Positions 6,569-61,801 of a DNA stretch of 64,000 nt are shown here, one piece after another. Made by a program: the position numbers and the translations under genes. The DNA lies in contig OX597815.1 of the NCBI GenBank assembly GCA_951406725.2, forward strand, positions 122,822,001-122,886,000. Direction: 5' to 3'. The notes beneath the pieces are model-generated. The model saw only the letters and a program-made list of their open reading frames with translations. It made no database searches and had not been told where the DNA came from. Origin of the DNA: Octopus vulgaris. Taxonomy: Eukaryota. The first letter of the stretch is position 1. Each line of letters starts with the position of its first letter.

Positions 6569-6760
6569 TACATAAAATTGGGGAATAAATCCAAACTTAC
6601 AGGGAAAAAAATCAGATTTAGGATTGAATCCAGTTTATAGTAAAATATTATATTATATAAATTAGAGACAAAACCACTATTATGCAAATCAAACAAAGAA
6701 AGACTTAATCCAATACATAAATTAATTTATATAATTTAGAAATTTAACAATTATTAATAT

Positions 6761-6824
6761 CCACTACGATCGTTTCATGTCTTCTTTTCATCACATCTTT
6801 GAGTAGTAGACATTCTTCAGGTGG
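6761..6824 (-). ncRNA. Minimal type I hammerhead ribozyme motif (mirror copy)
   Basis: Reverse complement of 6932-6995. Confidence 0.8.
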
Positions 6825-6931
6825 TTTCAAATATTCTTGGCGAGTTTAAACTATGAACTAATTTTAAATCACAAACGTCTTTTGTGATTTAAAATTAGTT
6901 CATAGTTTAAACTCGCCAAGAATATTTGAAA

Positions 6932-6995
6932 CCACCTGAAGAATGTCTACTACTCAAAGATGTGATGAAAAGAAGACATGAAACGATCGTAGTGG
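6932..6995 (+). ncRNA. Minimal type I hammerhead ribozyme motif
   Basis: ccac CTGAAGA atgtct...agacat GAAA c gatc g TA gtgg. Stem I ccac/gtgg, stem II atgtct/agacat, short stem III with palindromic GATC loop, GUA site after 6991. Confidence 0.8.
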
Positions 6996-7127
6996 ATATT
7001 AATAATTGTTAAATTTCTAAATTATATAAATTAATTTATGTATTGGATTAAGTCTTTCTTTGTTTGATTTGCATAATAGTGGTTTTGTCTCTAATTTATA
7101 TAATATATATATATATATGTATGTATG

Positions 7128-7212: not shown

Positions 7213-7590
7213 GACGAAAGATCTGTCTTTCTGCCCACAACCTTCGTAAAGAACAAAACGTGCTTATACTTGTCTCCTTCATAAGCTCGTCTTCCTCACG
7301 TTCATAATAATTTTTCTATCGTCTTGGCTTAACAGCCCTCACCGGTTATTTTTACTGCTTTGTTCTCACTGTCCTGTTCTTGTTACCACTTTCATCATCC
7401 GCAAAAAATTCCTAATTTTCTTTGCGGAAAGGACTGTTTCAACGAAGTCGCGTCTTGTCCTTGCCTTCGAAACGTGGAGTAGATGAAACAGGGACAACTG
7501 AAGAAGGGGAATGTTCTTTATGTTGCATGTCTCGTTTCTGTTTTCGTTTCTCATTGTTATCAACGTTTTTTTATGTCCTGTACCCATATA
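7213..7590 (+). mobile_element. Probable Penelope-like 3' terminus (family 1) between microsatellites
   Basis: Bounded by (TATG)n and (TA)n. Pyrimidine-rich tail ending cctgtacccata is shared with 61575-61730. Contains HHR core motifs. Confidence 0.6.
7427..7504 (+). ncRNA. Candidate re-ordered (pseudoknotted) hammerhead, family 1
   Basis: gaaagg(P2) ctgtttca(Px) cgcGTC ttgtcc(P1) ccttc GAAA cgtg tgaaacag(Px') ggacaa(P1') CTGAAGA. Confidence 0.65.
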
Positions 7591-11087: not shown

Positions 11088-11680
11088 TTCTTTACTACCC
11101 ACAAGGGACTAAACACAGAGAGGACAGACAAACGGATTAAGTCGATTATATCGACTCAGTGCGTTACTGGTACTTATTTAATCGACCCCGAAAGGATGAA
11201 AGGCAAAGTCGACCTCGGCAGAATTTGAACTCAGAACGTAGTGGCAGACGAAATACCTATTTCTTTACTACCCACAAGGGGCTAAACACAGAGGGGACAA
11301 ACAAGGACAGACGAACGGATTAAGTCGATTACATTGACCCCAGTGCGTAACTGGTGCTTAATTTATCGACCCCGAAAGGACGAAAGGCAAAGTCGACCTC
11401 GGCAGAATTTGAACTCTGAACATAACGGCAAACGAAATACTGCTACGCATTTCGCCCGGCGTACTAACGATTCTGCCAGCTCGCCTTACTATTGCTATTG
11501 TTTTGTTGTTATTAAGGCAACGAGCTGGCAGAATCATTTGCATGCCGGACAAAATGCTTAGCGGCATTTCGCCGAGGTCGACTTGCCTTTCATCCTTTCG
11601 AGGTCGATAAAATAAGTAACAACTCTGGGGTTGATGTGATCAACTTATACCCTTCCCCGAAAATGCTGGCTTTGTGCCAA
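11088..11680. mobile_element. Cluster of tRNA-derived SINE-A copies (minus 11088-11488, plus 11514-11680)
   Basis: Head ggcggcgagctggcagaa, B-box-like gagttcaaattcc, and core gcctttcatcctttcggggtcgat, all repeated throughout the window. Confidence 0.85.
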
Positions 11681-31539: not shown

Positions 31540-31880
31540 AAGGTTCAACGTCAATTTCATGATAAGAATTCACAACCCAGAGGTCTAAAGGCAATGGCTG
31601 AAGCAGTGGACAAGAGTTCCAAATGGATCAAGTCAAAGAGGAATGAAAGGGAATGTCAGAAGCCGAAATGGTTACAACATTCAAGGTATCTTTGCTCTGG
31701 GACACTTAATCATCCAAGAAGACACAAGTTACAATGCACATAATTGCACAAAATGTGACACCAAAGAGGTATCCTGGAGTTATAAACTGGATGTGACCCG
31801 GCCCCCGTAAAGTGTAAAGAGTTTAAGGGCTGAAACATTTGCACGAGAAGGACTTCTCTGAAGACATTCAGCTGCTCGGC
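31540..31880 (+). mobile_element. HERO-like (RLE non-LTR) 3' end remnant
   Basis: 31591-31655 translates AMAEAVDKSSKWIKSKR, like the AAE.AS.W.W.KR C-terminus. Followed by a putative 3' UTR. Confidence 0.5.
31800..31864 (+). ncRNA. Candidate re-ordered hammerhead, family 3 (diverged)
   Basis: ggccc(P2) ccgt(Px) aagtGTA aagagt(P1) gggct GAAA cattt gc acg(Px') acttct(P1') CTGAAGA. Confidence 0.5.
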
Positions 31881-33564
31881 TCTCCCTAAAATTTCTTACC
31901 ACCTACGAGCGAACGGCATCTTATTCTTTCGGCTGTTGTAAAGCTCAAATAAACTCTTTATCTAAACTTCGCAAAGGAAGCAATAAACACAGCCTTGGGA
32001 AACTAAAAGAAACACAAAGCTGAGAATAAGTTGAAATCACTAAATGTAAACACATGCTGAAAAAAAGTTTAAGTTGGCTGTAGAAGGTAAAACAATGAAG
32101 TTGTTATGGTGCTAAAATAATTATCCGTAGGCTGTACCTATCGTTGTTATTGTTATCATCATTGTCGTCTCTTTCATAGCTTCTTTGTGGATGGACCGGA
32201 TCCAAAAAATTTACGCAGTGAAAATAGGAAACGCGTAGGTGAAGTTCTACGATAGCACAGAATAGGTCAGAGATAAAGTGAATATTGGTATTTCATAGAA
32301 ATGAAGTTGGTGCAGCGTCTCAATGTATGGACGAGGGAGGCAGGCAAGAAATATAAGAAAAGATAAGAGCTTCCCTTGTGTAGACCAGACGAGACGGCTC
32401 GACCATAATATATGTAAATTGACAACTATAAAAGAATACAAGTTAATTAATAATAGATTAAATATCGAAATATCTGACATGAGTAATTGTTAATAAGATT
32501 ATAATTTTTCATGTTAGAGATGAGAATTCTTTTACATTTACATCTACTGGCTACTTCGATCGGTTTGTTCCTTGAATTATTCCTTATTCGTTGATGTGTT
32601 CATAGTGCAGACTGGATGCAAGCTCAAAATATTTATTTCTAAACTTAAAAATAGACCGTTCTTCCCCACAGGCATACAGTGGTTCCCAGATTCACCTCTA
32701 CCAAAATATTAGGGATTTTTTTTACCCCATCCCCTTTATTATCAAGAAGACAAAATAGAGTTTATGTCAAATATGATTCTTCTTTCTTCGCCGTGATGTT
32801 GAACAAGTGAATTTGGTTGACAGAAGCTGTATGGAAGCCTGTCGTAAATGTATACATGTGTGTGTGTGTTTCTGCCAATGCTTGTCCCCATCCCACTGCT
32901 TGACAACTGGTTTCGGGTTGCTTACGTTCCCACAACTTAGCGATTCGAGAAAAGTGATCGATAGAATAAGTACTAGACCTAAAAAATGGGGCTGGGCTCG
33001 ATCTGTTCAACTAAAACCCATCTAGGCATCTTAATTTTCTTAAACATGGCAATTTACCCTCAGCTCGCCTTTTTTTTTTTTTTCGCCGCTTCTAACAGGA
33101 CCTCCATGTATGAAAAATATTGGCCTAGGGGAAGTAGCATAGTTGAGGGTGAGAAGGAGGGCCTCCCCGGGCGACGTTTTTATGGAGCCTCGAGGCGAGC
33201 TGCCCTGTGCGGCACACACTCTAGCTACGTAACTGCCTAAGAGATAAAAGTGCTATTATTCTTTAAGCTTAGAAATAGCGATTCTGAGTTTGTATTCACT
33301 CTGCTATTAGGAAAACGTCAAGGAATAAGGCACTTAATTATGACGCGAGATCGAACTGATCGAAGCATAGCTTAATATAAACATTAAAACATTTAGCAAG
33401 TAATGTTCGTAGCCACTTCAACATGGCTGTTCCGTTCGAACGGACTTTACAACGATTTTTTTAACCCCAAGAGGACATTTCCTCTAGCTGGTTAACGATA
33501 CCTAGCTTCTTCCGACATGTTGCAAGCAGGGGAGCGAACCCCTACCACCTTCTAGCGATGGGAT

Positions 33565-61574: not shown

Positions 61575-61728
61575 CAGGAATTACCAAACAACTGATGAAG
61601 GGTCGTTCTTTGTGTTGTTTGTCTTGTTTTCTATTTGTGTCTTTCGTTGTTCGAAAACATAGTTCATATTCCATGTACTCGTACTTCGTATTTTTTGTGG
61701 TACACGTTTCGTGACGCCCTGTGCCCAC

Positions 61729-61730
<2 letters not shown>
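61575..61730 (+). mobile_element. 5'-truncated family 1-like Penelope terminus
   Basis: acaaCTGATGAaggg..gttcttt.tgttg...cctgtgcccacata(TA)n parallels 7494-7590. Confidence 0.6.

Positions 61731-61801
<71 letters not shown>

Follow-up and report, generated by a model that had tools for sequence, protein, structure and literature searches.

No small ribozyme has been studied as thoroughly as the hammerhead. In its established structure, the A9·G12 pair stacks on the G10.1-C11.1 pair. In the accessible part of the work of Eckert et al. 2023 (PMC10085705), six block orders are recognized for the motif on the assumption that CUGANGA and its neighboring stems are unbroken, and cleavage in vitro is shown for types SGC and CSG. 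The type CSG form had earlier been reported from two metagenomic sequences only. Among mobile elements, the hammerheads of Penelope pseudo-LTRs have been proposed to cut tandem RNA (PMC6765202, in part), while the portion at hand of a study of a Penelope-like element describes uncut RNA and internal priming in vitro, with no RNA-seq ends at the hammerhead site (PMC11167929). Naiads are described in the accessible text of Craig et al. (PMC8557442) as lacking canonical hammerheads; eight of them are marked as "half cores".

Here we analyze a stretch of 64,000 nucleotides of the Octopus vulgaris genome (contig OX597815.1; the whole stretch is hereafter called the window), in which an earlier note, made from the letters of the DNA, had pointed to a hammerhead-type topology in the 3' UTR of a HERO-like LINE remnant. 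The intact six-helix motif carried by relatives of this locus is probably a self-cleaving hammerhead of undescribed wiring that would process tandem or read-through transcripts, and the window holds a decayed copy of it.

Results

The window copy and its family

The window is part of a 2.8-Gb genome, and the features of its LINE copy are collected in Table 1. All strings read in the earlier note are present: ggccc (31800-31804), gggct (31827-31831), aagtgt (31810-31815), acattt (31835-31840), GUA (31814-31816), GAAA (31832), and CTGAAGA (31858), with five of the six pairs of its helix P1. The peptide remnant is also there, although it ends at 31641, 158 nt before 31800, and not ~140 nt as had been given. 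After 31662, ~35 nt are absent from the window copy, including the family's stop codon. By hammerhead numbering, the predicted cut site is 31816/31817.

Table 1. Parts of the HERO-like element copy in the window and of its predicted hammerhead-type motif
Feature	Position	Strand	Remarks
HERO-like LINE copy, apparently old family, 5'-truncated (ORF end and complete 3' UTR)	31551..31902	+	relatives in the same genome 65-81% identical; family majority stops at ~31902
Restriction-like endonuclease ORF, C-terminal remnant	31591..31662	+	AEAV...KR at 31597-31641
Stem IV 5' strand (extra closing helix)	31757..31768	+	majority 12/12 pairs, window copy 7/12; relatives covary
Stem V hairpin, abuts G10.1	31769..31794	+	31769-77 with 31786-94; majority 9/9 pairs, window copy 7/9; 6-nt loop palindrome of most relatives decayed here
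Stem II 5' strand, corrected register, G10.1 = 31795	31795..31799	+	window copy 4/5 pairs
Px 5' strand (helix linking stems I and II), corrected register	31802..31807	+	majority 6/6, window copy 3/6
Stem III strand; U16.1 = 31815, H17 = A31816	31810..31816	+	6/6 pairs
Stem I strand 3' of the predicted cut	31817..31821	+	majority 5/5, window copy 4/5, mismatch at 1.2-2.2
Block G: stem II 3' strand 31827-31, GAAA 31832-35, stem III strand 31835-40	31827..31840	+	
Px 3' strand, decayed	31846..31851	+	
Stem I strand 31853-57 and intact CUGAAGA core (C3 = 31858, A9 = 31864)	31853..31864	+	
Stem IV 3' strand, first base A9+1	31865..31876	+	
Terminal tail	31877..31902	+	element end ~86 nt past the predicted cut

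The core of the window copy is intact, and 31 of the 43 pairs of the six-helix model are formed. Energy folding without pseudoknots placed this copy no better than its shuffles (z = -0.83), and neither a strict helix descriptor run over the window nor an Rfam search of the window gave a match. The window copy by itself is at chance level; the signal for the motif comes from the family and the relatives. The copy is probably an inactive fossil, and we consider it unlikely to cleave itself.

Among 115 source-genome loci, 62 distinct copies span the motif; the remainder are partial or duplicate. The column majority of the family satisfies all 43 of the 43 pairs and has a gap-free junction at A9 and G10.1. 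Core letters are intact in 11 of the 62 copies, but in each of these at least one helix is damaged. The family appears to be old. The U at 11.1 in the window copy is likely the CpG decay product of a C, given that this position is C in 20 of 36 exact matches. Within the family, divergence is 0.13 in core columns versus 0.20 in stem columns, a gap which we do not use as evidence because many copies were selected by core-containing patterns. In DNA contigs from four runs the window insertion is nearly unchanged, with 0 to 5 differences over 500 to 700 nt, sequences too alike for constraint to be tested on them. A 6-nt palindrome in the stem V loop is kept in 23 of the 62 copies. A sister subfamily (L197, L202, L206, L207, L211, L215, L217, and L221) has a compensated stem I and mostly C at position 17.

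Other repeats in the window include a dispersed SINE-like family, D19, with 10 copies listed (at 11516, 12426, 15026, 37645, 44459, 44866, 51184, and 51901, among others), and a 227-nt perfect inverted repeat, I2, with a 5-nt spacer at 6649-7107.

Relatives fetched by protein

Relatives were fetched by protein, with the RNA motif left unused. The query was the endonuclease ORF of family B, a younger family of the same genome; it gave 234 homologues, and 62 sequences were aligned. The best 80 of 341 metagenome loci were taken as relatives, and endonuclease regions among the fetched loci are 35 to 85% identical. A hammerhead core in S-G-C order downstream of the ORF could be parsed in 64 of these best 80, and in 59 of the 67 that have at least 250 nt downstream. 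By eye, the remaining eight are seven mutated copies and one locus with a motif ~400 nt downstream. Intact natural copies of ~130 nt with all six helices occur, for example, in L135, L141, L167, L178, and L182.

In the relatives a single ORF comprises a reverse transcriptase (RT), a zinc knuckle, and a C-terminal restriction-like endonuclease; only its final residues are left in the window. Of the 8 long relatives scanned, all matched RVT_1 and 7 matched zf-RVT, mostly below the curated cut-off. An N-terminal zinc finger is present in the downstream units of head-to-tail loci (see below). Compared by eye, the RT stretch of L111 is identical to HEROTn (PMC7650587 supplement) at 59 of 72 positions. 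The window's family is joined to the HERO-like group through the C terminus only; L197, from its sister subfamily, matches the HERO-like alignment A2 with 98% probability. Viral contigs gave one weak protein match.

L111, which lies on a metagenome contig, when set against L092, has a protein 87% identical to that of family B and a motif that agrees nearly letter for letter. Horizontal transfer, or a closely related host, is a possible explanation of this likeness.

Six covarying helices

Pairing was tested on 32 loci less than 80% alike, with own strands compared with swapped partner strands in 5,000 permutations. G10.1 lies 19 to 20 nt upstream of U16.1 in most loci. The upstream stem II strand of a locus forms 4.44 of 5 Watson-Crick pairs with its own partner versus 2.70 with swapped ones, and none of the 5,000 permutations reached the own-partner value, while the strand after A9, taken as the stem II partner, gives 1.94 own versus 1.79 swapped pairs. 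In a sequence-only alignment of 47 rows (46 loci and the window), stems I, II, III, and Px are paired in 94.5% of 955 cells, compared with 66% for shuffled and 38 to 46% for slid controls, and 18 of 21 pairs change on both sides. Upstream stem II alone is likewise paired in 94.5% of cells, as against 43.7% for the classical downstream partner (40.6% when shuffled), and just 2 of the 47 rows allow position 11.1 to pair with the base that follows A9. These shuffle tests ignore relatedness and are therefore inflated, which is answered in part by the slid controls and by several stem II sequence pairs that recur at separate places on the protein tree.

These data uphold the S-G-C order and, from the earlier note, helices P1 and P3, the core boxes, and the upstream partner of stem II. 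They also support the presence of such a fold in HERO-like LINEs, a non-Penelope class: other HERO-like 3' UTRs preserve the pairing order with heavy covariation. Two helices of the earlier note need correction. It had placed the stem II 5' strand at 31800-31804, but the sequence-only alignment puts G31795, not G31800, in the G10.1 column, and the spacing that it proposed gives at least four Watson-Crick pairs in 0 of 32 relatives. Inside the window's family the two registers pair near-equally (79.5% of cells for the corrected one, 76.2% for the other), so that this family alone does not decide between them. Its short Px (cgt/acg) has a T·T at the middle pair in the family majority (49% of cells) and gives way to the Px of Table 1; the family majority repairs P1 and the corrected Px, and leaves the former Px unrepaired.

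Two helices that were missing from that model, stem IV (31757-68 with 31865-76) and stem V, complete the structure. From the 5' side the order is stem IV (5' strand), stem V hairpin, stem II (5' strand), Px (5' strand), stem III, UH, and, beyond the predicted cut, stem I, stem II (3' strand), GAAA, stem III, Px (3' strand), stem I, CUGANGA, and stem IV (3' strand). The bases directly past A9 pair in stem IV with a far-upstream strand, which itself leads straight into stem V. Own stem IV strands form 7.6 pairs versus 2.1 for swapped ones; at least four pairs are found in 22 of 31 loci, 21 of these 22 having no unpaired junction base on either side. In 29 of 31 loci the last base of stem V is G10.1-1. 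Its mean of 6.7 pairs falls gradually in shifted controls, to 5.3 at 2 nt and 3.7 to 3.9 at 6 nt, which makes this test soft on its own. On the alignment, stems IV and V are paired in 78.2% of 669 cells, and 15 of 15 pairs change on both sides. All six helices thus covary.

A strict descriptor of four helices matched 50 of 67 loci and one of six helices 38 of 67, with 0 matches in 670 shuffles; among 120 viral loci with the same core words, the four-helix form matched 1 and the six-helix form 0. We regard the six-helix structure as established by this covariation with near certainty. In 22 of 32 loci, versus 5.2 expected, a palindrome of 6 nt is present in the loop of stem V, with five different palindromes among L111-L190, which suggests an RNA dimerization signal of the kissing-loop kind.

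The hammerhead core

Across the 64 parsed loci the core reads CUGANGA in 61, with U3-A8 in two and U3·G8 in one, a conservation partly imposed by the parser. In the 47 rows, the A15.1-U16.1 pair is U-A in all 47, for which the rows were selected, and G10.1-C11.1 is G-C in 39 and G-U in 4. Stems I, II, and III, which flank the core, all covary. The two loci with U3-A8, L159 and L183, are sister rows and count as one event. Replacement of C3-G8 by U3-A8 is a known covariation of active hammerheads (PMC3088659, in part), and this swap, together with G10.1-C11.1, fits a true active site.

A16.2-U15.2 is found in two loci. Position 17 is U in 26 of the 64 loci, which gives a slower cleavage triplet. 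U is also found at cleavage sites tabulated for Penelope hammerheads in the accessible part of the PMC8557442 supplement. In hammerheads A9 is joined to G10.1, with no more than 1-2 bases inserted. This link is absent here, and stems IV and V form a four-way junction in its place. Searches of six loci with intact or near-intact motifs with the Rfam hammerhead models, at E values up to 5, gave no match. Intact members of the group are very likely to cleave themselves.

Other carriers of the fold

The same fold is present in two more repeat families of the Octopus vulgaris genome besides that of the window. A core-order pattern gave 2,214 matches in the source genome versus 44 for the reversed control. 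Among the first 30 pattern loci, the four-helix form fits 19 and the six-helix form 14; all belong to family A, a Penelope-like repeat. Amid (TA)n, copies of family A are found both inverted and in tandem, in the style of Penelope-like elements; we looked for an autonomous partner of the family and found none. The window itself contains a decayed family A copy with the same six-helix fold at 7392-7510 (+), probably one of the other instances meant in the earlier note, and a family A 3' fragment at ~61588-61750 (+) that starts just 5' of CUGAUGA. Contigs of four runs guessed to be RNA cover family A, and such contigs cannot show RNA ends. Repeat copies with the same word order also occur outside these families (A-C), at G000:C1:115759568, C1:115806036, and C1:84873066.

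Among the 54 Naiads, consensus sequences were read by eye at places 1 to 60 of the 62 CTGATGA matches in the PMC8557442 supplement. Within this part, all six helices fit the ends of Naiad_Amil, Naiad_Aacu, and Naiad_Anas (Acropora), of Naiad_Obim and Naiad_Ovul (Octopus), and of two further entries, which together represent four independent groups of Naiads, and one additional entry fits partly. Two entries of the nematode section have an unsplit type CSG at the same place.

Integration ends and head-to-tail loci

Integration ends were mapped on 60 copies chosen by ORF alone, 30 of family B and 30 of the window's family, two of the loci overlapping. The earlier note had supposed that the cut could define the RNA end used for priming. 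This was not borne out: 0 of the 60 copies have their end 5 nt or less from the predicted cut. Past A9 extend 53 of them, to ends about 73 to 118 nt beyond the cut. Integrated copies retain the whole motif, their ends lying ~85 to 90 nt from the cut. The cut as the integrated 3' end is thus ruled out. In intact ORFs the predicted cut lies ~30 to 200 nt past the stop codon.

Among loci with at least 150 nt after A9, 15 of 59 run on into a HERO-like 5' UTR, mostly through to the N-terminal zinc-finger ORF (L122, L125, L132, L135, L137, L140, L141, L150, L152, L159, L171, L173, L176, L178, and L187), a number that may overstate or misstate the true tandems to an uncertain extent because short-read contigs may collapse repeats into loops. 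In 14 of the 15, the distance from the predicted cut to the next 5' UTR is 99 to 153 nt. Sister copies of these loci stop at the same base and then pass into unrelated flanks. The chromosome-scale source genome, where five full-length-type 5' fragments were found, contains one head-to-tail junction (L287), and four of the five fragments have no motif upstream.

The position of 5' truncations was also recorded. In a first sample of family A, 13 of 71 fell at -1 to +8 of the predicted cut. In a control sample, 20 of 90 fell at -11 to +19, 10 at +20 to +50, and 7 at -71 to -12, which reduced an apparent sharp pile-up to a broad hump with no spike. Of 30 truncation points in the window's family, 2 come as close as 2 nt or less to the cut. 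The pile-up is suggestive of cutting; with a control hump from -11 to +19, it does not establish cutting in vivo.

Discussion

With 15 of 59 loci arranged head to tail, a likely role of the predicted cut is the processing of tandem transcripts, a role also suggested for Penelope-like elements. There is roughly an even chance that the ribozyme of an upstream unit generates the 5' end of the RNA of the downstream unit, which would then fall ~100 nt before the 5' UTR of the latter. Reverse transcription would start from one set position past the ribozyme and would use RNA that is uncut, re-joined, or circular, again in line with proposals for Penelope-like elements, and the palindromic loop of stem V may dimerize two RNAs. 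The catalytic core would fold as in other hammerheads, with the RNA cut 3' of H17. At the four-way junction, stems IV and V would be stacked, keeping A9 and G10.1 side by side with no bond between them; the strand 11.1-G12 and the strand from stem IV to stem V would be continuous, and the other two would exchange, A9 leading into stem IV and stem V into G10.1.

The motif might instead cut in order to silence the element, the coding RNA being split from the 3' end used for priming, so that only protein-protected RNA is copied. This would agree with the origin of all integrated copies from RNA spanning the cut, with a cut some 30 to 200 nt after the stop codon of intact ORFs, and with the 44 of 59 loci that are not head to tail, but it leaves the steady 99- to 153-nt spacing at 14 of 15 head-to-tail junctions unexplained; moreover, the cut halves would presumably remain paired via stems II, III, IV, and Px. 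We think silencing improbable. Somewhat less probable again is a hammerhead-derived fold that has ceased to cut and serves as an RT-binding handle of the 3' UTR or as an RNA dimerization module. The broken A9-G10.1 link, the frequent U17, the excess of palindromes in the stem V loop (22 of 32 loci versus 5.2 expected), and a position equal to that of protein binding in R2 elements (PMC6765202, in part) would all suit such a handle. It does not account for every catalytic position being kept at 35 to 85% protein identity and in an unrelated class of retroelements, for the U3-A8 swap, or for the unsplit type CSG that, by eye, nematode Naiads of the accessible supplement have at the same place.

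A plain type-SGC hammerhead, with the stem II partner after CUGANGA, shares the S-G-C block order, and in family B the bases after A9 give 4 of 5 stem II pairs if one base is skipped; it is nevertheless very improbable and was rejected, since downstream pairing is at chance, the base after A9 hardly ever pairs with 11.1 (2 of 47 rows), and the bases after A9 belong to stem IV. Chance pairing within a dead repeat, for which the window copy with its failed descriptor and shuffle-like folding would speak, has a negligible probability, being refuted at the family level by the permutation, alignment, and descriptor tests.

The self-cleaving reading of the intact motif remains the one that we prefer. 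A wider version of it would hold that this is a seventh topology, an active ribozyme with a junction replacing the A9-G10.1 bond, common to HERO elements and Naiads; that it is the "missing" hammerhead of many Naiads; and that HERO elements transpose via tandem self-processed RNA, possibly circular and dimerized by kissing loops, with internal priming. For this whole chain we would put the chances slightly short of even. Our data suggest that HERO elements share a tandem, internally primed life cycle with Penelope-like elements.

The fold breaks, at the core junction, the rule of six block orders set out in the accessible part of PMC10085705. It occurs in thousands of copies in one animal genome and yet was missed by descriptor and Rfam searches. 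It also offers a testable answer to the apparent lack of hammerheads in Naiads, and it adds an R2-related clade of LINEs to the carriers of hammerhead-type motifs, with the motif in the 3' UTR.

A full-text literature search found no HERO ribozyme and type SGC only in its original paper; a precedent may exist in subscription journals, in figures, in bioRxiv supplements, or among Repbase entries. The accessible parts of PMC13725137, PMC10162972, PMC6155905, PMC3088659, 10.64898/2026.07.22.740005, and 10.64898/2026.09.16.752053 describe no such form. In that part of PMC13725137, Weinberg 2015 is cited for variants of the hammerhead "with additional helices", and that paper too could hold a precedent. 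For a core with A9 unlinked from G10.1, the literature searched contains no tested precedent.

Comparison with known systems

As in the HERO clade (PMC4640811, PMC7650587), a single ORF of the relatives described here encodes the RT, the zinc knuckle, and, at the C terminus, the endonuclease. The literature searched reports neither a ribozyme nor a head-to-tail structure for this clade, whereas both are seen in the HERO-like loci, the ribozyme as a predicted motif. HDV-like ribozymes of R2, L1Tc, RTE, and baggins LINEs, as covered by the accessible text of PMC6765202, have likewise been proposed to free LINE RNA from a longer transcript; they belong to another ribozyme class and lie at the 5' end, while the core found here is of hammerhead type and lies in the 3' UTR.

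The type I hammerheads of Penelope-like elements and retrozymes, to the extent described in the portions at hand of PMC6765202, PMC11167929, and PMC8557442, resemble the motif in having the core near the 3' end, tandem or partial-tandem copies, and integrated copies that are uncut. They are small, three-helix, circularly ordered structures, in contrast to the six helices, multiply pseudoknotted, found in endonuclease-RLE LINEs and Naiads.

The closest relatives are the type-SGC and CSG hammerheads. According to the accessible part of PMC10085705, these share with the motif the cyclic order S-G-C, a short linker between stems I and II, the core letters, and a helix that connects stems I and II at their distal ends. 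They differ in that block C is split here, the stem II 5' strand lying ~20 nt before U16.1, and in the two extra helices with their four-way junction. The SGC examples of that part come from metatranscriptomes and none from the genome of a known organism, while the motif is carried here by retrotransposons of animal type. As modeled, the motif is a hammerhead ring opened inside block C.
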